Positions 2,463-18,139 of a stretch of 64,000 bases of DNA are shown piece by piece. Source of the DNA: Candidatus Thorarchaeota archaeon (GTDB lineage: Archaea; Asgardarchaeota; Thorarchaeia; Thorarchaeales; Thorarchaeaceae); contig DXJO01000038.1 of NCBI GenBank assembly GCA_019057475.1, forward strand, positions 32,001 through 96,000. Direction: 5' to 3'. Within the stretch, counting starts at the first letter, position 1. Each line of letters opens with the position of its first letter. Under the pieces are notes generated by a model. That model saw only the letters and a program-made list of their open reading frames with translations. It did no database searches and was not told where the DNA came from. The position numbers were made by a program, and so were the translations under genes.

Positions 2463-2570
2463 GATGTCACCAACTCAGTTCTTACTGTGCTGTGGACTCT
2501 CGTGCCTTTTGATATGAAGTCCCTAAGAGCCTACCGCTGTTCTGGTTGGAGTTTCATAGGAAGGAGGGGA

Positions 2571-2843
2571 GGCTTACCCCGAAAGCCCGGAGGAATGCTC
2601 GTCATTCTAAACGGAAATCCTCACGGCCCCAGAGCTTGTCAGGCTCGAAAGGGTCATCCGTGGCTGAGTACTGTGAACAGGCGACTCTCGAGTCGTTTGA
2701 GAGTGCTACCGATCCCGCCATGGCAAAAACCGCGGAAACACCGTCTGCCGCCATCGACGCTCTAAAGGCCTCTGACAGTCATGGCAAAGCAGTGCAGCGG
2801 ACTGAAGCTCAGTCTGGAAAGAGGGATAATGTTCCTGTGAAGT
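2571..2843 (+). repeat. Direct repeat copy 1 of the tnpB 3' region (orphan omega-RNA-like fragment)
   Basis: Aligns ungapped to 15883-16155 with about 19 mismatches in 273 nt (counted by eye). Confidence 0.95.
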
Positions 2844-7289: not shown

Positions 7290-8264
7290 ATGACTGATTC
7301 CGACAAACAAACCTTCTTGATCAGGAAGAAATCAGCAGGACTGGAAATCGAAACACGAGTTGATGAGAAGAATCTCGATAATGCATACCTAAAATTGGAG
7401 GAATTATGGGCACATTTCAGTCAATTGGATGAAGAGTTGGAACCCAAACGAAAAATTCGCGATCTAGTGAAAGAATGTCAGAAGTACTGGGTTCGGAAAG
7501 ATGGGAAACGGTACCTAGCGAAGGACGTTGCTTCTGTATCTCATCGAGTCGGACTATCTGTGCTCGATGGGGGCAACAAAGGAAAGAGCCTGAAGGCCAT
7601 TGCCGACGAAACCGGGTTGTCTTCACCCCTTGCGCGGTATCACCTAACTGACGCCAAGGGAGCATCAGGGTGGTGCTTACAAGATGAAAAAAGACATTGG
7701 AAACTAACACCGGAGGGATTGGAGCACGTTACAAACATAGTAATTCCGTATTTACAGGGCCGTCACGGAAATGAACTCCACATGATTCTGAAATGGATGA
7801 ATAACAGAATATACAAGGGTCAGTTTGATAGCTGGATACTCGGCAAGGTCCAAGGAAAGGTGGACAAAACCAACTTCTTGGAATATGCCGTTGGATTGCT
7901 CCTATCAGCTTTAGGTTTCCTAGTATACCAAGTGGGCATGTATAACGATAGATTCGATATCGTTGCCTGTCCGCCAGATGGGTCTATCATGCTGGTATGT
8001 GACTGTACAACAGGTTCAGTCAGAAAGAAGTCATCGGGTCTCAGCATAGTCGTGGAAGAACTCAGGACCGAATTTCCAGAGATGCACGTAGAGGGTGTTG
8101 TTTTCACAACGGAAAGAATTAGTAAGACTGATCGAAAGGATTTGCTTAGCGACAAGATTGGGATTGTTGATGCAACTCAGATCAAGGAACTCCTCAAGCT
8201 AGCAAAATCCGATCGAAATCCCGAGCTGTTGTTTGATGTCATGAGGAAGAAGGAAACGCGATAG
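7290..8264 (+). CDS. wHTH paralog fused to a C-terminal Mrr-like restriction endonuclease domain
   Basis: LDNAYLKLEELW N-module and wHTH, then FLEYAVGLLLSALGF..RFDIVA..LVCDCT..GVVFT..IGIVD (PD-(D/E)xK-like fold, with a non-canonical third residue). Confidence 0.65.
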   Translation: MTDSDKQTFLIRKKSAGLEIETRVDEKNLDNAYLKLEELWAHFSQLDEELEPKRKIRDLVKECQKYWVRKDGKRYLAKDVASVSHRVGLSVLDGGNKGKSLKAIADETGLSSPLARYHLTDAKGASGWCLQDEKRHWKLTPEGLEHVTNIVIPYLQGRHGNELHMILKWMNNRIYKGQFDSWILGKVQGKVDKTNFLEYAVGLLLSALGFLVYQVGMYNDRFDIVACPPDGSIMLVCDCTTGSVRKKSSGLSIVVEELRTEFPEMHVEGVVFTTERISKTDRKDLLSDKIGIVDATQIKELLKLAKSDRNPELLFDVMRKKETR

Positions 8265-8319: not shown

Positions 8320-9204
8320 TCACTCACTTGGGCGCAGGACAGAACTCATGTATTCCCTTACTCTCTCCGTTTCGAAGAAGTAGTACAATCCATCATCTGA
8401 TAAACGGAAACCTCTCTTGCATTTTGAGAAGTATTGAGAGTGGTCATGCTGTATCCCCGTTATGATTCGGGAAATGGATGACTTAACCAGACCAGTTTCC
8501 AAGGCGATTTCTTGCAGAGTCCTGCAATCGGGGTACGCTCTAAGGAGTGAAACCATAATCTTGTAAGGGGGCTTTGACTCTTCGGACTTTCTGCCAAGAG
8601 CTTCAAGCGAGCCATCATTTACATAGATAGACCAGTGACCGTCTTCCCTGCGCCAGAGATTAGTAGTCCCCTGTTTTGCACGCTTAATCATTTCATCGAA
8701 CTCTTCAGTTACATAGTCAATGGATTGAACCGGATGTTTCTCTGGAAGGGCATTGAGGACACGCAGAATCTGGTCCTGAACCTTCCGTGGGCTCTTCACA
8801 GATGTGGAATTCCCAAAAATTCTCTTGTATTCGATGACGTAGTAGCTTTTAGTGTCGAAAGGAAGTTCTCTTATCTTTTGAGTGAGTAGAATAAATGGCT
8901 TGCTCAAACCCCATGCAAGACCTAACTCTAGGAAGACATTCGGATTCGAGCCTGACAGGTCAGCAATAATCGCCCTAGATTCTTGTATGTTGGCACATAT
9001 CTTGCACCAAATCTCGGGTTTGCTCAAGTCGGAATCGGCTCTATGAACAGTCCAACCTGGCAAAGATTTCAGAACATCGTGAAATAGGCTCTGGGGCGCC
9101 TCCTTCTCTCGAAAGGGCATAAGCACAAACAGTTTGCGTGGATCATACTTCACGTTGACACCACACCGCTCGTAGTTCTTCGGGCATATGATTGGTATAC
9201 TCAT
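8320..9204 (-). CDS. Nucleoside 2-deoxyribosyltransferase/TIR-like domain fused to the family wHTH
   Basis: LFVLMPF..RAD..IQESRAIIADLSGSNPNVFLELGLAWGLSKPFILL; C-terminal SLLRAYP..EIALETGLVKSSISRI..GFRLSDDGL. Confidence 0.75.
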   Translation of the reverse strand: MSIPIICPKNYERCGVNVKYDPRKLFVLMPFREKEAPQSLFHDVLKSLPGWTVHRADSDLSKPEIWCKICANIQESRAIIADLSGSNPNVFLELGLAWGLSKPFILLTQKIRELPFDTKSYYVIEYKRIFGNSTSVKSPRKVQDQILRVLNALPEKHPVQSIDYVTEEFDEMIKRAKQGTTNLWRREDGHWSIYVNDGSLEALGRKSEESKPPYKIMVSLLRAYPDCRTLQEIALETGLVKSSISRIITGIQHDHSQYFSKCKRGFRLSDDGLYYFFETERVREYMSSVLRPSE

Positions 9205-9294: not shown

Positions 9295-12200
9295 TCAATG
9301 AGTGACACTTCCTAGAAGATGCTCAATCTTGGAGATGAGTCCATCATAGTTTTCTATCCTCTCCTTTGCTTCCTCATCACTTCCGAAGTACGACTCCACA
9401 ATCTCTTGAATCAGGCTTTCAGCATGGTCAAGTGTTCTAGCAACCCCGCTCTGAGGAGGTGTTGTCGCAAGGATCCAGTTGTACACCTGTTCCCCTGTCT
9501 TGTTGGATCTAGCACTAAGCTGAATTTCTGACTTGAACTTGAGCACAGTACAGACCAACTTCTCTTCGTCCATCTCAAGATAGCTGCCAGCCCGGATTGC
9601 CCTCAGGCCTAGTTCTCTCACGATTCGTCGACTCTCTCTGAACACCATGCCCTCTCTAGTCGTGGGGTCTGGAACGAACTCAAACGCGAACTCGCACCAT
9701 GCATTTCCGAGAAATGCACCTCCTGCCAACATCATTGCAGATATCTCTGAGTCGTCAAGTCCAGTCTTGGTCAGTCCAGATAGGCTGGTATCCTTGTCCC
9801 CATCCGAGAGCTCTACGCGCCAGCATGCACCATGACACTCCATTTCTCCGCTGGCTATGGGACATAGCTCCTCGTCGTGAGTCACAACCAGCGTTTGATG
9901 AGCGACCTCTCGGCTCGTGAGGTCCTCTGCGGTTGATGGCAGGGTCGTGCGAAAGCGGACGTACGGAGTCCTCTGCTCTACGTAGGGCCTCAGAATCTCC
10001 AGTGCATCATAATCAATGTCATCATAGGGGTTCCATGTCAGATAGGTTTCTGTGTCTTTCAGACTCTGCAGTGGAAGACCATCGACTATTGGACGTCGAA
10101 GCAGCGCGAGGAGCTCAGACGTGTGCTGGATGGACCAGCTCTCGATCAATTCGTTTCCATCAGCTCTATTGAACTCAATCGTGTAGTGGTCGTCATCCAC
10201 GTCCAGTGTGCATTTCGTCGAAACACAAAGGCTGAGTGACTCCGATATATCCTCAAGTACTCCTTGCACTCTCTTCCCTAGTGCCCGCGGAAATCGAAAC
10301 CATTCCGGCAGTAGTGGGAAGTCCTGTTCAGGCATTGTTGTGATCTGAAGTCCGCGGATGCCAGCAAGCGTTTCTCCTCTCCTCCTTATCGTGGTGAGCT
10401 TGCCCAGAGGCGTCCAATTCTCTTCATCGCGAAACCAGAAGTAATCTCCCCCGGCGGACCTATGCACGATTACGTCGTACGTGGCAGTTGCACCTACATG
10501 CTTAGACAAGCACAACGCAATCTCATCCTGACGGATTGCAGTCCAGCTTACTGTTTGCTTGGGCACAAATGGTTCGCATCCAATCCATACCCCAATCAGC
10601 ATTTTCCGACGGTCGTAGGGGTTCTCTATCGCCAAGCAATACTCCGGAGTTTCGTGCTCTTCTGACAGCACCAGAATCTGACCGTAGCTCACAGTACTCA
10701 GTTCAGGAACGTTCAGTGAGGTCATGGCTTTAGCCCGTTTCGCAAGTCCTGACCACACAGCTCTCAGATCGAGTCTAGGTGTGACCTCTTCTGACTCAGA
10801 GTTCATAAGGACGAATCCCATCTGCATGATTTGCCAAGACTTGAGAATCCTCCATAGCTCCGATAAATGCCTGTCAGCCAAAGTTGGGAACTCCCTAGTG
10901 AGCCCCAAGAGCAACAGGAAGAGGTAGTTGCCAAGAGAAACGGACAGGTACGGTCGCACACTGAGAAGATCCAGCAGCATCTCCCTGTCCTGTGCTCTCA
11001 GTCCCTCTACCAACCGGCTATCTCGAACCCACTGGAGCGTCGCCCATACTGGCTCAGAAACCGGACTCGTCTGCAAAAATCTCACGATGTCATCAAGCGC
11101 CTCGATGTGACCCTGTTTTCCATCGCCAATCGAAATCAATTCATCGAGCTCATCGAGGAACTGCGACCAGCTCGACCCGTCCTTCTCATGTCCCACTTGC
11201 CGAAGGATCCTGACGGCCTGACGAAGCCGCCTGAGTTCAAGCCGCGTGGCTCTCTCGATATCATGGCCAAAGCGCAGAGTGGCCTCTATGGGAGGTCTGT
11301 AGATACTCGCGCCCGTGCACTCTCGATTACTGTCCTTCCTGTAGGCACGTTGATGTGTGATGCTGTTCCTTGGCAGCAACGCAACACTCTCAACGAATGC
11401 TCTCCCGTGTCCCACTGTCTGCATTCTTGTCCTGTATTTCAGAAAAGGAGCTCCAGAAGGCCTGCTCTTCGAGCCATATTCAGACAGTGGCACGACATGA
11501 ATTTGCCGTCCCCCAGTATCATCCGCTTTCTGTACAATGCTCTCTGACAGATACTGCTTCAACTGAGGCACGAGCTCGATGGAGTCCCGAAAGAAATCAT
11601 CTTGCATCTCTGAATTGTGCATGACATCAGCAGACCGAATCACCGTTCGTCCTCTTTCTCCTTCTTGAGCGGATGAAACTGATGCTCGCCTTGGCTCATT
11701 CCAGAACCTTGGAGACCAGTTGTGAAGCGGTAGTACCTCTACCATGTTGAAAGAGATACCATCAATGTCCTGTCTTATGATGACTCTGAGGTCATCGAAC
11801 GCAGATGTCAACTGGCCTGATGCATACGGTCGCACGGGGAGATTCCATACGATCTCTGTGACGAAGCGGTTGAGTTCGGAACCTTGGAAGAACGGCTCCA
11901 TTGTCCTTCTCTGATAGGATGCTGAAGTACCTTCTGAGTTTCTAGGCCTGTCAAACCAGACTACCGTACAACCTGCCTCATTCAACTCAGCCGCGATTAT
12001 GCGTCGCAGCTCATAGAGTGCCGGCCGTAGTCGTTTTGGTGTGCAGTCATCCAGTACATCCCAGCCACTGACCACAACAACCCTACCATCTAGAGCATCC
12101 CATTCCTCTCCCACGAGCTTTGCTATCGACAGGTCCCCGATTCCTCTGAAGAGGAAGTCCTGTATAGCTGACGAGGCATCGCTGAACATGACTGCGCGGA

Positions 12201-14235
12201 AGAACTCGCGCATGTGGTCACTGCCTTGATCTGACCTGAGTCTAGTCCTAGCCAAAGACTCGGCTCCAAAGTCACCTGCCAAGTCCAACCACAGCATTTC
12301 AGAGTGATCATTCTCCTGTTGGAGGCCGTGGATGAGCTCAAGTCCGTGCCAGTACTTGGCTATCCAAGCAGCAGAGGGCCCTGATCTAGACGCGGAGTTC
12401 ACACTCAGATAGAGAATGAAGCGGCCTCTCGCCTTACCATTCTCCTCTAGTGGGCTGCGTTGCTCAACACCCCACAAAGGCCAGCCCTTTTTCCCAATCT
12501 GTTTCAACTGGTCAGCAGCTATGCCATGCACGATGATAGCAAGTTTCAGCCAATCCCGGGTTCCGTCATTCAAGACAACTCCCACTGGTCTGCTGAGATG
12601 CTCTTTGAGAAGGACTGAGGCGTTCTCACACAGAGCTCGCGTGAGTCGCCATAGTCTGGGACGTACCACAGAGGAGTCCTGCGAAGTGTCAAGGACCACA
12701 GTACCGGTCAGAGGCCGCACCACTGAACGGTCCTCTGTGATTCTCACATACTCCGTAGCAAGACCTTCGGCATAGGCCTCGAGCTGTTTCATGCCGTACC
12801 CCGTTGGCGTTCCGGCAACAGACGCATTCCACTCGGCGTTCGTGAGCCCGCGCTTTCTGAGAACAAACTTGGGAATAACCTTCTGTCCGTGTTTCTTGGA
12901 ATCCTTCTTCTCAGCTTTAATCTCCCAATTGAAAGCAGTCTTGCTCTTGATGTCAAAGACAGCCACGGGTATCCATACGGTCAGTTTGCCCGGCACTCTC
13001 GGGTTCTGAATCACATGACGTCTGAACATCACGAGATCCGCCCGCCCCTTCCCTAGGGAGGTTTCCACAGGGATTTCTGCTGCAAGGAGCCACTGGTCAC
13101 CCTCCTCCACCCAACGGTCACCGTTGAAGACCACCGACTCCAAGTCGTATGGCTGGACGAGTCCGTTAGTCATCAACCTGTGCCATCTGATGCCGTGCCA
13201 TCTCGCCCTCCGCATAACTTCCTTTTGTAGCCACTCACCGTCCTCATCCCGAAGGATGCCACGTTCGCATAGGTCCTTGAGGAAGTCCGCCCAGGCCTGA
13301 CGAATCTCACTCTCGGAGGCTTCCTCTTCCGGATACCTCAACTGCGTGACCTGGTCCAGGAAGAATGAAAGGTCCCACCTAGCCCTCGACTCCTCAATGG
13401 ACTGTGTCAGTGATGGCGCCCGCCCATAGTGTGTCCCGTAAAACGCCTCGATCTCCTGGACTATCTCTCGGAGAATCCAGTTCGCGTCAAGCTGTTCACT
13501 ATCCCTCCGCCCACTTCTTCTCGAACGCTTGAACCCCCGCTTCCCGCTCTCCTTCGAGGTGTAGAGATACTCGAGGAACGGTGACAGCCGCCATATCAGC
13601 AGGCCAACATACCTGCGCGCGTTGTTCATCGGCACGTCGTTGATGAAGCACTTACGACACAGTTCGAAGATGTGGGCTCTCAGCATGTCCCCGAAGTCCA
13701 GCTCCGCAAGGACAGTGTGAGCCACCTCAACCCATGGATAGTCGCTCCCGCCTTCGTACCCTGCAATCCACCTCTTGCCGCGTCGACCTGCTGTCTTTGG
13801 CTCTGGAAACGGAAACCTTGTCACGACCCAGTTCCTCAGTTGTGCGCCAGCCATGTTCAGTAGTCTGTTGAGCGGCCCAATCCTCCCCTTCCTCTCGTTC
13901 TGTATCCGCTTGTACTCCCTGTTGCCGTAGCGCGCGGTGGTTTCCCAGATCATCTTGTTGAAGTTGCGACGCATGTGTTTCTCGACGTTTGTAATGTGAG
14001 AAAAGTCGGGTTTGCCACCGCGTCTGCTCGCGCGCCACTTGCTCAGTGCTTCGGTCCACTGCCTTTGAGTGCTGGCATAGACATCCTCGATGCTCTTGAT
14101 CGTGCGCTCGCGGAAGAGGTCACGCAGTGCCGAAAGACCGTTGAGGTACGCGCGAGCTATGGCCTGCGCTGGGTCGTGGGGGTATGGCCTCTGTTCACTC
14201 TCCTTGAGGTTATCCATCGCGGGCACGCGTATCAC
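9295..14235 (-). CDS. 1646-aa giant hypothetical protein with a PD-(D/E)xK (RecB-like) nuclease motif
   Basis: Long uninterrupted ORF; EIPV..GRADLV..VFDIKSK..QLEAYA motif. Confidence 0.7.
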   Translation of the reverse strand: MIRVPAMDNLKESEQRPYPHDPAQAIARAYLNGLSALRDLFRERTIKSIEDVYASTQRQWTEALSKWRASRRGGKPDFSHITNVEKHMRRNFNKMIWETTARYGNREYKRIQNERKGRIGPLNRLLNMAGAQLRNWVVTRFPFPEPKTAGRRGKRWIAGYEGGSDYPWVEVAHTVLAELDFGDMLRAHIFELCRKCFINDVPMNNARRYVGLLIWRLSPFLEYLYTSKESGKRGFKRSRRSGRRDSEQLDANWILREIVQEIEAFYGTHYGRAPSLTQSIEESRARWDLSFFLDQVTQLRYPEEEASESEIRQAWADFLKDLCERGILRDEDGEWLQKEVMRRARWHGIRWHRLMTNGLVQPYDLESVVFNGDRWVEEGDQWLLAAEIPVETSLGKGRADLVMFRRHVIQNPRVPGKLTVWIPVAVFDIKSKTAFNWEIKAEKKDSKKHGQKVIPKFVLRKRGLTNAEWNASVAGTPTGYGMKQLEAYAEGLATEYVRITEDRSVVRPLTGTVVLDTSQDSSVVRPRLWRLTRALCENASVLLKEHLSRPVGVVLNDGTRDWLKLAIIVHGIAADQLKQIGKKGWPLWGVEQRSPLEENGKARGRFILYLSVNSASRSGPSAAWIAKYWHGLELIHGLQQENDHSEMLWLDLAGDFGAESLARTRLRSDQGSDHMREFFRAVMFSDASSAIQDFLFRGIGDLSIAKLVGEEWDALDGRVVVVSGWDVLDDCTPKRLRPALYELRRIIAAELNEAGCTVVWFDRPRNSEGTSASYQRRTMEPFFQGSELNRFVTEIVWNLPVRPYASGQLTSAFDDLRVIIRQDIDGISFNMVEVLPLHNWSPRFWNEPRRASVSSAQEGERGRTVIRSADVMHNSEMQDDFFRDSIELVPQLKQYLSESIVQKADDTGGRQIHVVPLSEYGSKSRPSGAPFLKYRTRMQTVGHGRAFVESVALLPRNSITHQRAYRKDSNRECTGASIYRPPIEATLRFGHDIERATRLELRRLRQAVRILRQVGHEKDGSSWSQFLDELDELISIGDGKQGHIEALDDIVRFLQTSPVSEPVWATLQWVRDSRLVEGLRAQDREMLLDLLSVRPYLSVSLGNYLFLLLLGLTREFPTLADRHLSELWRILKSWQIMQMGFVLMNSESEEVTPRLDLRAVWSGLAKRAKAMTSLNVPELSTVSYGQILVLSEEHETPEYCLAIENPYDRRKMLIGVWIGCEPFVPKQTVSWTAIRQDEIALCLSKHVGATATYDVIVHRSAGGDYFWFRDEENWTPLGKLTTIRRRGETLAGIRGLQITTMPEQDFPLLPEWFRFPRALGKRVQGVLEDISESLSLCVSTKCTLDVDDDHYTIEFNRADGNELIESWSIQHTSELLALLRRPIVDGLPLQSLKDTETYLTWNPYDDIDYDALEILRPYVEQRTPYVRFRTTLPSTAEDLTSREVAHQTLVVTHDEELCPIASGEMECHGACWRVELSDGDKDTSLSGLTKTGLDDSEISAMMLAGGAFLGNAWCEFAFEFVPDPTTREGMVFRESRRIVRELGLRAIRAGSYLEMDEEKLVCTVLKFKSEIQLSARSNKTGEQVYNWILATTPPQSGVARTLDHAESLIQEIVESYFGSDEEAKERIENYDGLISKIEHLLGSVTH

Positions 14236-14483
14236 TCGGGCATTTTGTAGGGTTATAGCCTAATAAAAGCGCGGTCTTTTCTCATTCTTTCCTCTTACTC
14301 TGGCTTGAAATCTTCGAAGTTAGAACCCGAACAGGTTCCTTTATTCAAATAATCTTCATAGATTTATATGATGTCAGTAGTAAGAAAGTGTGGAGGTTAT
14401 CACCCGACTTCCGTAGAAAGATGTTGAGTGAAAACCCTCTGACCAGAAACAGGTCGGAGATTTATATGGTACGGTGAACTTGA

Positions 14484-16280
14484 GTGGGTCTCTCCAAGGG
14501 AATAGTAACAAGTGTCAAGGTCCCGATTCGTTGGGACTCTATGACCAAACGGCAGCAAACTCGCCTTTCCCGAATCACAAGCCGGGATACTAGGGTGATT
14601 CGTGCCTTCCTTGGAGTGATTGCACGTCACGAGAAAGAACTTCTTGTCGGTAAGAAAAAGAAGAAGATCAGCGGTGCAAAGCTTGAGAAGCTGACCCTGA
14701 CTGCTACAAGATTCAAAGACGCATCTAAGAACCGAACCACAGTTCCCCACGACTTCAAGAAACGATTCCCGAACATATCGCTGAATGAGCTTCAGGAGTG
14801 CAGACAGGTGGCCGCTGCAATGTGGCAGAGCTATCTCGAACTTGGGGGCAAGCCTCCTCTCCATACTCATGGTTACAGGCCGCGCAAGCTGCCTCGGTAC
14901 ATCTATACTCGAAGGTTCAAGATAGTCTATACTCCTGAGAAAGAGATCAAGCACTGGCTCAGGCTGATGGACTCCCTCGACTCTGAAAAGACAGAGGGAC
15001 GATATCATGACTATCTGATGGTTCCTCTCAATCCCTCTTCCTATCATCTGAATAGGATCAACGAGGGCAAGGTGACGTCACTTCGGCTTCTGAAAGATAC
15101 CCGGAAGAAGTGGTGGGTGGTGTTCGCTGTACGCGTGGATGTCCCCGCGGTTGACAACAGCTCGAAGCCACCAGCAGTGACAGGCATAGACCTAGGGATC
15201 AACAAGGCAGTCTGTTCGGTAGTCTTGACTCAGACTCGTGTCAGGTTCGTGGGATACTTCACGCAGCCTGAGAAGGTCAAGCGAATCAAGCGGTACGATG
15301 AGATGGTCGACTCTCTTCAGAGAGAGATGAACACCAGACTCAACAACGGGCAGTCAGCAGATGGAGTCATCCAAAGACTTCGCGAGCTGAGCGGGCGACG
15401 TAACCGAATCAGTATCGACCACGACCGGGTGCTTGTCAGGCGGCTCACTGACCACATCTTGAAGTTGTCAAAGAAGTACGACCTGTACGTGGCGATTGGC
15501 AAACTGACCGGGATTCGGAAGAGTGCCAACAGGGACAGCAAGAAACCGAAGGCATTCCGGGCGATGGTCGGACGGTGGTCTTTTGCAAGAGTCACCAATG
15601 CGTTGAGGCAGAAGCTGTCCGAGAGCGGCTGGAAAGTCAGTGGTCGTGATTCCCGATTCATTCCGGTCCGCGAGTACTGGACTAGCCGAGTCTGTTCCAA
15701 GTGTGGGCACATTGGAATACGCCCGAAGCAGTCTGTCTTCATCTGCCATACCTGCGGTCACAAGACCAATGCCGACAAGAACGGCGCCATCAATATCGCA
15801 AGGCGCCTCATTATGCTCATTCCTTCACTGAAGGATGAGAAAAGACTAGGGAGTTGGCTTCATCCTCACGAAAGAGAGGGGTGGCTTACCCCGAAAGCCC
15901 GGAGGAACGCTCGCCGTTCTAAAGGGAAGTCCTCACGGCCCCAGAGCTTGTCAGGCTCGAAAGGGTCGTCCGTGGCTGAGTACAATGAGCAAGCGACTCT
16001 CGAGTCGTTTGTGAGTGCTACCGATCCCGCCATGGTAAAAACCGCGAAAAAACCGTCTGCCGCCATCGACGCTCTAAAGGCCTCTGACAGTCATGGCAAA
16101 GCAGTGCAGCGGACTGAAGCTCAGTCTGGAAAGAGGAACGATGTTCCCTTGAAGTCTAGCGAAGCCCGTGTCATAGCGTCGGCGTGGAACCCGATGTATG
16201 CTGGCGACAGTCGTCACGGGAAGGGTGGAACGCGTGGGTTGAAGGTTACCGAGGGTGTTCACTCACTTTCTGAAACTTGA
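14484..16280 (+). CDS. tnpB: TnpB/Cas12-family RNA-guided endonuclease with rearranged RuvC-II and a long C-terminal extension
   Basis: RuvC-I GIDLG; VAIGKL (G at the usual E); downstream REYWTSRVC; zinc finger CSKC..CHTC; RuvC-III NADKNGAINI. Confidence 0.9.
   Translation: MGLSKGIVTSVKVPIRWDSMTKRQQTRLSRITSRDTRVIRAFLGVIARHEKELLVGKKKKKISGAKLEKLTLTATRFKDASKNRTTVPHDFKKRFPNISLNELQECRQVAAAMWQSYLELGGKPPLHTHGYRPRKLPRYIYTRRFKIVYTPEKEIKHWLRLMDSLDSEKTEGRYHDYLMVPLNPSSYHLNRINEGKVTSLRLLKDTRKKWWVVFAVRVDVPAVDNSSKPPAVTGIDLGINKAVCSVVLTQTRVRFVGYFTQPEKVKRIKRYDEMVDSLQREMNTRLNNGQSADGVIQRLRELSGRRNRISIDHDRVLVRRLTDHILKLSKKYDLYVAIGKLTGIRKSANRDSKKPKAFRAMVGRWSFARVTNALRQKLSESGWKVSGRDSRFIPVREYWTSRVCSKCGHIGIRPKQSVFICHTCGHKTNADKNGAINIARRLIMLIPSLKDEKRLGSWLHPHEREGWLTPKARRNARRSKGKSSRPQSLSGSKGSSVAEYNEQATLESFVSATDPAMVKTAKKPSAAIDALKASDSHGKAVQRTEAQSGKRNDVPLKSSEARVIASAWNPMYAGDSRHGKGGTRGLKVTEGVHSLSET
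15883..16155 (+). repeat. Direct repeat copy 2, inside the tnpB 3' end (probable omega-RNA scaffold region)
   Basis: Matches 2571-2843; hairpins with a compensatory change between the copies. Confidence 0.9.
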
Positions 16281-16598
16281 AACAGGCCGGTGCATGCAGC
16301 CGATCGTATCTCCCGTGAGGAATCAAAGTGAAGCAGTTAGTGATTCTCACAAGTACTCGCTATGTAGGTAGCCCAAAGTCATCGCCTTTCCTCCTCTCGG
16401 AGTGCTCTGCTTCGGTACCACTCCTAGCGGCTGAAATGAAGGTTTCTCCCTTAATGTGTCCACGGTAACAGTTCACTTTCCGAGTGGTCCAATCATTAGA
16501 ATCAGTTTACCTTTAACAGCTACCGAATTCACATCTGAAGAATTATATGTCATGCTGAATCGACTCCACCAGCGCTCTGCGCCAGCAAGTGATTTAGA

Positions 16599-17009
16599 AT
16601 GCCCCCTAAGGATATGAACGTCATAATTTTTGGATGTATGCAGTGCTGTTACGCTGCAGCGGACCTAGCGGGCACGATGAAGTTACAGTACGACGTGACG
16701 AGCCGGCTAATCCGCATGCCGTGCACCGCGCGCCTGGACATCAACTTCATCCTGAAGGCGTTGCAGGAGGGTGCGGACGGCGTGCTGATTGTTGGCTGTC
16801 ATCCGGGAGACTGCGCGTTCAAGACCGGCAACCTAGGGGCAGAGCGACGCGTCAGATTCGCAAGGAAGCTGATTGGCCAACTGGGCCTGAACGAGAATCG
16901 TGTGAAGATGGTGTTCGTGAGCGCTGCAGAGGGCGACCTGTTCGTCAAGCACGTCAACGACTTCGCAGATGAGATCAGGGCGATAGGGCCAAACCCGATA
17001 AGGCTCTAG
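16599..17009 (+). CDS. mvhD: Methyl-viologen-reducing hydrogenase delta subunit (MvhD/FlpD)
   Basis: CMQCCYAAADLAG, RMPCTAR, GADGVLIVGCHPGDC, VSAAEG motifs. Confidence 0.92.
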   Translation: MPPKDMNVIIFGCMQCCYAAADLAGTMKLQYDVTSRLIRMPCTARLDINFILKALQEGADGVLIVGCHPGDCAFKTGNLGAERRVRFARKLIGQLGLNENRVKMVFVSAAEGDLFVKHVNDFADEIRAIGPNPIRL

Positions 17010-17052: not shown

Positions 17053-17463
17053 CTAATATCTTCTGACATCAATTCCGACTATTTTCTCATAGTGACGGTC
17101 TTGAGTGATGATTGTGGAGCATCCATTTGTGAAGGCAATTGCGGCAGTCAGACAGTCATTGACACCTATTGGCTTGCCAGATCTCTCCAATTCTGTGTAG
17201 ATTCTGCTGGCACGGTCTGCAGCCTCAACGTCAAGATTCCAGATAGTGATTCTGGAGAGTAGCCTTCTAACAGCCTGTTCTTCGGAAGGGATTCGTCCTC
17301 TGACATCACATCCTCTGAATAGCTCGAATGCATTCACACTTGTACTGGCAAAATGGAAGCCCTCCGACTTGAGCCTGAGATACTGTTCTTGAGCCTTGTC
17401 GACCCCTCTCAGGAAATCGATAAGGAACGCAGTATCAAGGCATGCAAATGTCAATGTGACCAA
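17053..17463 (-). CDS. vapC: VapC-type PIN domain toxin
   Basis: CLDTAFLID..SVNAFEL..G.PIGVNDCLTAAIA..IITQDRHY. Confidence 0.9.
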   Translation of the reverse strand: MVTLTFACLDTAFLIDFLRGVDKAQEQYLRLKSEGFHFASTSVNAFELFRGCDVRGRIPSEEQAVRRLLSRITIWNLDVEAADRASRIYTELERSGKPIGVNDCLTAAIAFTNGCSTIITQDRHYEKIVGIDVRRY

Positions 17464-17663
17464 GCACCCCAGATCTCATCGAGGTCCTCGAATAGGCTTT
17501 CTCTCTCTTCATCGCTCATTGATAATATCCCAAAGAGGTCCGAGATATCGTCAACAGGACCTAGGAGCCGCAAAACGACATCACTGAAGGACTCTCTCTC
17601 TCTTTTCACTCTGCGAAGACGGTCGTAAGCCTTGTCGCTTAATGAGATATTCTTGTAACCCAT
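17451..17663 (-). CDS. vapB: Archaeal VapB-type antitoxin
   Basis: MGYKNISLSDKAYDRLRRVKRERESFSDVVLRLL; overlaps the vapC start. Confidence 0.85.
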   Translation of the reverse strand: MGYKNISLSDKAYDRLRRVKRERESFSDVVLRLLGPVDDISDLFGILSMSDEERESLFEDLDEIWGAWSH

Positions 17664-17772
17664 GGCAATCATCTGTGTATTCATACACAGAAACACAGAT
17701 AAATGCCGCGACTTGCACCCTAGTGCGGAGGTTGTTCCGCTATTCTGGATGCGCATCACTTTTCGCAATACA

Positions 17773-18139
17773 ATGTATGTACGCTGCAGCGGACCTAGCG
17801 GGCACGATGAAGTTACAGTACGATGTCACGTGTCGGCTAATCCGTATGCCCTGCACCGCGCGCCTGGACATCAACTTTATTCTGAAGGCCTTGCAGGAGG
17901 GGGCGGACGGCGTGCTGATTGTCGGTTGTCATCCCGGAGACTGCGCGTACAAGACGGGGAACCTGGGGGCAGAGCGACGCGTCAGATTCGCAAGGAAGCT
18001 GATTGGCCAACTGGGCCTGAACGAGGGCCGAGTGAAGATGGTGTTCGTGAGTGCGGCGGAGGGCGACCTGTTCGCGAGGGAGGTCAACGATTTCGCTGAC
18101 GAGATCAGGGCGATAGGACCTAACCCTATTAGGCTCTAA
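17773..18139 (+). pseudogene. mvhD: Second, 5'-truncated mvhD copy lacking the QCC codons
   Basis: Near-identical protein to 16599-17009; ATGTATG|TACGCT junction versus ATGTATG-CAGTGCTGT-TACGCT in copy 1; unrelated sequence upstream. Confidence 0.75.

Follow-up and report, generated by a model that had tools for sequence, protein, structure and literature searches.

In the window, the whole 64,000-nucleotide stretch of Thorarchaeota DNA analysed here, a tnpB gene is flanked by a large gene on the opposite strand, whose start lies ~250 nt upstream, and on its downstream side by the host gene mvhD. Short repeats are found at both ends of tnpB, each followed by a candidate spacer. The coordinates of these features are collected in Table 1.

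Table 1. Features of the tnpB locus, in window coordinates unless another locus is named
Feature	Position	Strand	Remarks
Orphan copy of the tnpB tail/scaffold	2564..2843	+	93% identical to 15876-16155; left bracket of the 13.6-kb island
aCas1 fusion partner, 1,640 aa from ATG 14217	9295..14235	-	linkage, fold, motifs
Cas1-fold domain of the partner, aa ~7-250	13468..14199	-	invariant residues and structural alignment
Putative promoter target: TTCAT flank (TAM-like) 14355-14359 and TATA-containing protospacer from 14360	14355..14373	+	
Putative leader RNA: GGAG box, GAGTGAA box, TGACC hairpin, repeat CAGGTCGG at 14450-14457	14390..14457	+	
Leader spacer copying the element's own promoter	14458..14471	+	
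tnpB, 598 aa	14484..16280	+	ORF; profile, fold and alignment matches
tnpB zinc finger, C4	residues 404-424, within 14484..16280	+	
tnpB disordered tail	residues 466-598		overlaps the guide scaffold; AF2 model
Putative guide-RNA scaffold inside the ORF tail	15870..16290	+	boundaries approximate
Anti-repeat CCGATCC	within 16020-16028	+	
Motif GTTCACTCA	16257-16265	+	in most copies; motif also in PMC10691335
3' repeat CAGGCCGG	16283-16290	+	
3' spacer, antisense to mvhD codons ~11-15	16291..16306	+	wobble mismatches at positions 6 and 9 against the adjacent allele
mvhD (FlpD, PF02662), host target gene	16599..17009	+	protospacer on the minus strand, 16632-16642
VapBC toxin-antitoxin pair, between full and truncated mvhD	17053..17672	-	
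Second mvhD copy, 5'-truncated	17771..18139	+	starts at Gln15, inside the guide target
Second aCas1-linked TnpB type	L167 6995-9286; L168 7221-9368 (G000 C53, C54)		several relatives end beside tRNA genes

The rearranged RuvC site of TnpB

The protein is a member of the TnpB/Cas12f superfamily, with RuvC motifs I to III, a C4 zinc finger and a Cas12f-like fold. It matched PF07282 (E 4.5e-13) and also NF040570, the latter at 90.3 bits, under the cut-off of 100; in a Foldseek search with its model, the top matches were Cas12f and TnpB structures (best E 1.8e-16). The RuvC-I aspartate is D236 (GIDLG, codon at 15189) and the RuvC-III aspartate is D431 (NAD, codon at 15774). The RuvC-II position is occupied by G339 (VAIGKL, codon at 15498), which aligns with the glutamate of canonical TnpBs, and a relocated glutamate, E397 (VREYWTSRVC, codon at 15672), is found 58 residues further on, six before C404. 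In the AF2 model, G339 closes the canonical RuvC-II strand (333-340), E397 comes directly after the next strand (392-396), and the tail is disordered, with pLDDT <50. When the Thorarchaeota family was aligned, D236, G339, E397, D431 and the four zinc cysteines were invariant in 111/111 members. The exchange of glutamate for glycine, the relocated glutamate and the intact RuvC-I and RuvC-III aspartates of the original prediction are therefore real and conserved, and its reading of the swap as a known rearranged RuvC site agrees with what is described for RIIr/TnpB2 enzymes, activity having been demonstrated for one of them (PMC10691335, PMC10530073).

Judged by its motifs, TnpB is of the RuvC-II-rearranged type (TnpB2/RIIr), with D-phi-G and an alternative glutamate. 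It shares with enzymes such as TvTnpB the E-to-G change in RuvC-II, the alternative glutamate before the zinc finger and the D-phi-G of RuvC-I; it differs from them in having neither a Y1 nor a serine TnpA, in an open tail of ~110-150 codons that covers the scaffold, and in its several guides. TvTnpB is the active enzyme referred to above (PMC10691335, PMC10530073), and in ApmFNuc the alternative glutamate, E467, makes the active site complete and is needed for cutting (PMC10530073). The strict conservation of these residues, together with the avoidance of the cis allele by the spacers (see below), suggests that the window enzyme is probably active. Far longer proteins are also present in the same G339 clade (P0130, 852 aa; P0142, 736 aa; P0137, 672 aa).

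It had also been hoped that this protein, taken as a solo TnpB related to Fanzors, would bear on the origin of the eukaryotic Fanzors. Both have the swap of glycine and alternative glutamate, which in Fanzor2 and the pro-Fanzors is likewise six residues ahead of the zinc finger (PMC10711439), and by source names the G339 clade reaches Heimdallarchaeota and Odinarchaeota. However, the defining features of Fanzors and pro-Fanzors are DPG together with the alternative glutamate, and IS607 TnpA; most pro-Fanzors are cyanobacterial (PMC10711439). The window enzyme is archaeal, neither cyanobacterial nor eukaryotic; it has aCas1 and no IS607 TnpA as its partner, and L237, which makes the motif DLG, was found in 111/111 family members. 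DPG was absent from ~210 G339 sequences of Thorarchaeota and other Asgard archaea (best library matches of at least 330 aa), and in the PDB sequence search Fanzor2 (9b0l, E 3e-6) was a weaker match than Cas12f (E 6e-10). Furthermore, the G-for-E swap arose in many TnpB branches (PMC10691335). Our tree, made with FastTree, covers TnpB sequences only. We give such a connection hardly any probability; the claim is unsupported, and the window TnpB does not inform Fanzor origins in the way that had been hoped.

The Cas1-fold partner and the copies of the element

The large partner gene accompanies tnpB in 71/113 copies. Within the first 250 residues of its product, E79, N117, H167, D174, D177 and R180 are invariant, and the model of this domain (pLDDT 87) has the catalytic helical fold of Cas1. 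The top 12 structural matches obtained with VIA-align were all Cas1 proteins or casposases (Z 9.4-12.6; best non-Cas1 match, 6.1), including 4n06 (Z 12.6, rmsd 4.1, 197 aligned residues) and the casposase 6opm (Z 10.7). The top five Foldseek matches were also Cas1, with E values of only 0.07-0.16, and Pfam, PDB profile and Atlas searches detected no Cas1 by sequence. After the Cas1 domain there is a PD-(D/E)xK/Cas4-like motif (E...D...(D/E)xK...QxxxY), whose D, K, Q and Y are invariant in 32 sequences, and then a degenerate P-loop-like segment followed by the C-terminus; the nuclease and P-loop parts are assigned by motif only and gave no match to Pfam or PDB profiles. The statement that tnpB lacked a transposase thus did not hold, with a Cas1-fold fusion gene beside it in most copies, and this fusion is probably the integrase of the element.

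Among the recurrent neighbours of the 113 loci there was no Y1 or serine TnpA, no TnsB, TnsC or TniQ, and nothing else besides the aCas1 fusion and the target genes. Casposons are marked by a family B polymerase, terminal inverted repeats (TIR) and a target-site duplication (TSD); here, judged by the size of the neighbouring genes and by the element ends, no recurrent polymerase-sized neighbour, TIR or TSD was seen. The flanking repeats seen were tRNA-half duplications in some copies, with none at the window locus.

An Asgard element that combines aCas1 with TnpB has been reported, and aCas1 was proposed there as its transposase (PMC10691335). Because of the Cas1-fold partner and the GTTCACTCA motif, the window locus is to be identified as this aCas1-TnpB element. 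It has in common with Cas1H-Asgard-1/-2 (Altae-Tran et al. 2023, PMC10691335) an Asgard host, a Cas1-like partner beside tnpB, the same motif downstream of the nuclease core, and two TnpB types associated with one aCas1 family. The second type, of 715-763 aa and present twice in the source genome, keeps the canonical RuvC-II glutamate, so the rearranged site is not needed for the partnership. The nuclease type and its association with aCas1 were already known. Makarova et al. 2020 is a further reference for Asgard aCas1-associated TnpB, with which overlap is possible; in the literature we found no paper on the guide positions, targets or guide logic, and none joining Thorarchaeota and TnpB.

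The homologues bear Thorarchaeota names. A match to the aCas1 profile was present in 44/76 genomes of the host's family, as well as in 3/11 from a single further Asgard family. The TnpB family is present in 55/87 genomes of the order, with up to 15 matches in each, and the source genome has four full tnpB copies and three fragments. Domestication, which had been suggested, is unsupported in a family that is multicopy, occurs in many contexts and travels with aCas1. Viral contigs gave only two weak, partial relatives, and plasmid TnpBs were at most ~31% identical to the window protein. In other Asgard families there are solo, multicopy TnpBs of the G339 type (L305-L324, 483-561 aa), with no aCas1 of the window family within ~7 kb; most of them end in an AACTCA motif, followed by variable flank.

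To the left of the partner gene, between 2886 and 9204, there are about ten small genes of lower GC (42-47%), several with winged-HTH-like segments, among them a restriction-endonuclease-like gene (7290-8264) and a nucleoside-deoxyribosyltransferase-like gene (8320-9204). They are probably the cargo of the 13.6-kb island. In another genome (G084, L009), the sequence preceding 2560 continues straight into the tnpB leader, with neither aCas1 nor cargo in between. Further loci (L006 and L007 on G000 C26 and C39, C40:43435, and L171 on C51) comprise scaffold remnants, which are short or gene-less, and an aCas1 C-terminal fragment that is 71% identical to the window protein.

Repeats and spacers at both ends of tnpB

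Compared with the core, the tail of tnpB had a 4.5-fold lower dS and a dN/dS of 0.55-0.62 instead of 0.10, which bears out the earlier proposal that the tail runs through an RNA scaffold. Of 95 elements, 98% nevertheless keep the tail frame open over at least 100 codons; for the other two forward frames the figure is 0%. No Rfam family was matched over the tail, and its folding energy was not unusual (z -1.1). A GGTCRG repeat is present one to three times ~20-30 nt past GTTCACTCA, and each repeat is followed by a spacer. The segment at codons 513-515 is complementary to this repeat, and a dinucleotide agrees between the two in 41/61 cases, compared with 18.9 after permutation. This covariation suggests a pseudoknot or a tracr-like pairing that would serve several units.

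Up to now no mechanism has been attached to the aCas1-TnpB element, and the guide was presumed to lie upstream of GTTCACTCA (PMC10691335). We considered that position and rejected it: within clades its sequence is conserved, and it pairs with the nucleotides directly downstream. The present account differs further in its possible mini-arrays, in an extra unit in the leader and in the identification of targets. With spacers, candidate TAM and targets located, the element becomes directly testable.

Among the 3' spacer candidates, 40/182 matched tRNA or 16S rRNA at 12/13 nt or better, a few of them being tRNA flank rather than true spacers, compared with 31/3,380 (0.9%) of shuffles. First spacers with a match of at least 11/13 within 900 nt of the element amounted to 30% versus 3.6%, and it should be noted that all spacer and locus counts overstate the significance since the loci are related. 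The elements lie 30-700 nt from their targets, and the target type follows the TnpB clade in the FastTree tree.

At the other end, every tnpB copy has a conserved upstream leader that ends in GGTC(A/G)G, and the 10-17 nt after it copy a TATA-containing site, mostly 92-100 nt upstream. The window leader spacer matches its own promoter exactly over 11 nt, and at 12/14 positions in total. A self-match of at least 10 nt anchored at the repeat was observed in 75/95 copies; in the control, which set the guide of one copy against the promoter of another, the share was 3.5%. TTMAT (TTAAT or TTCAT) precedes the promoter target in 62/78 elements; that it could be a general host promoter element was discarded, only 8/342 TATA-like sites of the genome having TYMAT there. 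The self-match was intact in 59/62 aCas1-linked copies versus 11/23 solo copies, and it recurs in another Asgard family. We infer that the leader spacer is a short guide with which TnpB would bind its own promoter and repress it. A short match to the promoter of the effector itself is likewise described for promoter-targeting CRISPR RNAs (Cas9 tracr-L, crlRNA); the guide proposed here differs in belonging to the TnpB leader of a mobile element, and its function is putative.

In addition, the GAGTGAA box region (14425-14439) is complementary to 16251-16265 at 14/15 positions. Terminal inverted repeats of a solo tnpB were considered and rejected: only a core of ~8 bp is conserved, with weak covariation beyond it, conserved sequence and aCas1 lie outside, and GAGTGAA/TTCACTC brackets tnpB only. 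The pair is read as RNA pairing or as a repeated scaffold motif.

Host-gene targets and proposed homing

The mvhD target of the window 3' spacer is 323 nt downstream. None of the 39 mvhD spacers, which come from related loci and are not independent, matched the cis allele over 11 nt, and permutation expects 8.2 of 37. At position 9, the Gly12 wobble, 36/39 spacers differed from the cis allele, but only 19/39 did so at position 6, the Cys13 wobble; in L016 the spacer corresponds to a Cys-Asn-Gln variant. All the alleles concerned occur in other genomes. Orphan 5' fragments of mvhD end at codon 11-12 (L190, L198 and L225), and 3' fragments start at codon 14-15 (the window copy at 17771 and L215, both read by eye). 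These breakpoints fit an insertion inside the protospacer by an element that would carry a recoded 5' end up to Gly12; the left 5' piece was absent from the source genome. The truncated copy shows 43 differences from the full one in 372 nt, and the VapBC pair between them may represent a second insertion at the same hotspot. VapBC is also found after mvhD in L222 and L223.

We lean towards RNA-guided homing into conserved host genes, with restoration of an immune allele, as the explanation of this locus. Alternatively, the host might have domesticated TnpB as an RNA-guided regulator that only binds and so controls the expression of mvhD, rRNA or tRNA. Such a role would be in keeping with the mvhD clade, which is one branch (support 0.997) at one host locus and often without aCas1, and with the self-repression module. 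Nevertheless, the family is patchy, multicopy and accompanied by decaying fragments, the spacers fit other alleles better than the gene supposedly regulated, and the site contains broken copies of mvhD as well as islands of cargo, all of which makes such a regulator very improbable.

The element on contig C9 directly follows the 16S rRNA gene, as its relatives do. In this 16S clade the spacers match near-universal sites, four in number, which are distributed over both strands and preceded by CGGAT or AGAAT. In the adjacent 16S genes, hairpin insertions of 28-32 nt, most of them with bulge-helix-bulge (BHB) geometry, are located inside the targeted sites. A cis insertion was present in 7/11 scorable spacer/site pairs, the other four having a seed mismatch or only 12 matching nt, and in C9 a spacer match of 27 nt is interrupted, 10 nt in, by an insertion of 30 nt. 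Insertions were found in 9/10 genes with aCas1 after them versus 4/13 without. The neighbouring copy of the target is usually recoded or intron-interrupted, and would therefore escape its own guide.

At tRNA genes, the tRNA-Gly copies L151 and L152 have the tRNA 3' half duplicated at both ends, which we count in favour of homing, as we do the observation that spacers at either end of tnpB begin exactly behind one and the same repeat. The Cas1 fold of the partner and its linkage, the invariant catalytic residues, the spacer matches to tRNA and 16S, the mvhD and 16S patterns and the leader self-match are further points in its favour. The tRNA-Asp copies L128, L144 and L150 are an exception and count against it, matching the cis tRNA at 13/13 nt. 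In these three copies the tRNA-Asp, which lies to the left of the aCas1 stop and was missed by ARAGORN, has its D-loop extended by a hairpin insertion of ~29 nt.

Some of these data could also be expected from ordinary TnpB retention, in which aCas1 itself would pick conserved sites in a casposase-like manner, the "spacers" would be leftover insertion flanks and TnpB would only keep the element from being lost. In IS200/605 and IS607 it is the flank that serves as guide (PMC10711439), tRNA pieces abut the ends of L141, L151 and L152, and the solo relatives of other Asgard families end, as we mentioned before, at AACTCA and a variable flank. However, up to three repeat-spacer units match separate sites on both strands of a 16S gene that lies 5 kb off, at the opposite end of the element; leader spacers copy the promoter of their own element, and the spacers mismatch the local allele. 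We regard retention alone as quite improbable.

A CAST-like behaviour would mean that TnpB binds with little cutting and recruits the aCas1 fusion, which would integrate close to the target, the mismatches and introns being target immunity or later drift. CASTs (I-F, V-K) home to tRNA sites by short, delocalised crRNAs (PMC11656645), and the element resembles them in its short spacers behind degenerate repeats, which point to tRNA or conserved genes beside it; many matches are only 11-15 nt, those in cis at tRNA-Asp and at the promoter are perfect, and the distances to the targets are short, as given above. It differs from CASTs in an effector that keeps its catalytic triad, in having no TnsABC/TniQ, and in a target gene that would itself be broken and restored. 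The invariance of the RuvC triad, the strict avoidance of the cis mvhD allele and the breaks inside the protospacer, not at a fixed distance, speak against this possibility, and the pairing of aCas1 with the distant canonical-Glu TnpB argues against a tight TnpB-integrase interface. We consider it unlikely.

According to the homing that we favour, the guides would be expressed and loaded in such a way that one tail scaffold pairs with the short GGTCRG repeats and presents several spacers. The 3' spacers would aim the rearranged-RuvC TnpB at near-universal sites in mvhD, 16S rRNA and tRNA genes, where it would cut element-free alleles. The element with its cargo would be inserted at or beside the site by the aCas1 fusion, perhaps with host recombination, leaving a working but immune copy of the gene; immunity would come from a recoded wobble base (mvhD Gly12) or from a small BHB intron (16S). 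The leader spacer, with its match of 10-17 nt, would send TnpB to its own TATA box for binding and repression, with no cutting. Against homing we also count that a perfect promoter match of 10-17 nt is tolerated whereas an 11-nt mvhD match was never seen, that the flanks of the host-gene targets (AGAAT, CGGAT, RCAT/RCAC, GRCT) are looser than TTMAT, that ~40% of the elements have no identified target, that the Cas1 domain lacks the N-terminal beta domain, and that neither a target-site duplication nor a clean terminal repeat was found.

More tentatively, the element may be a natural reprogrammable gene drive of Asgard archaea: an active TnpB with its mini-array would cut essential genes (16S rRNA, tRNA and mvhD) of element-free chromosomes, the Cas1-Cas4-like fusion would insert the element and might write spacers, linked recoding and BHB mini-introns would immunise the copies and spread rRNA introns, and the leader guide would throttle the promoter. 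Free-standing homing endonucleases, with intronless or collaborative homing (phage T4 Seg/Mob; PMC2988022), are comparable in that the nuclease, encoded close to a conserved gene, acts on the cognate site of other alleles, its own allele is immune, and there is a partnership with nuclease-less introns. In the archaeal chromosomal setting described here, specificity would instead be encoded in RNA and reprogrammable, and a Cas1-like fusion and cargo are added.

If homing is true, one mobile element would unite a TnpB nuclease with Cas1 and with a repeat-spacer array of proto-CRISPR type, and aCas1-TnpB would be a natural intermediate towards type V CRISPR. It would also provide a compact nuclease that takes several guides, perhaps along with a programmable integrase, and the small introns at universal Thorarchaeota 16S sites would be explained. 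Insertions at four conserved sites near the 16S 3' end were observed in the C9 gene (L170, 501-2032) and in L325-L354. Two of the targeted sites overlap common primer-binding regions, and the hairpin insertions may defeat common PCR primers.
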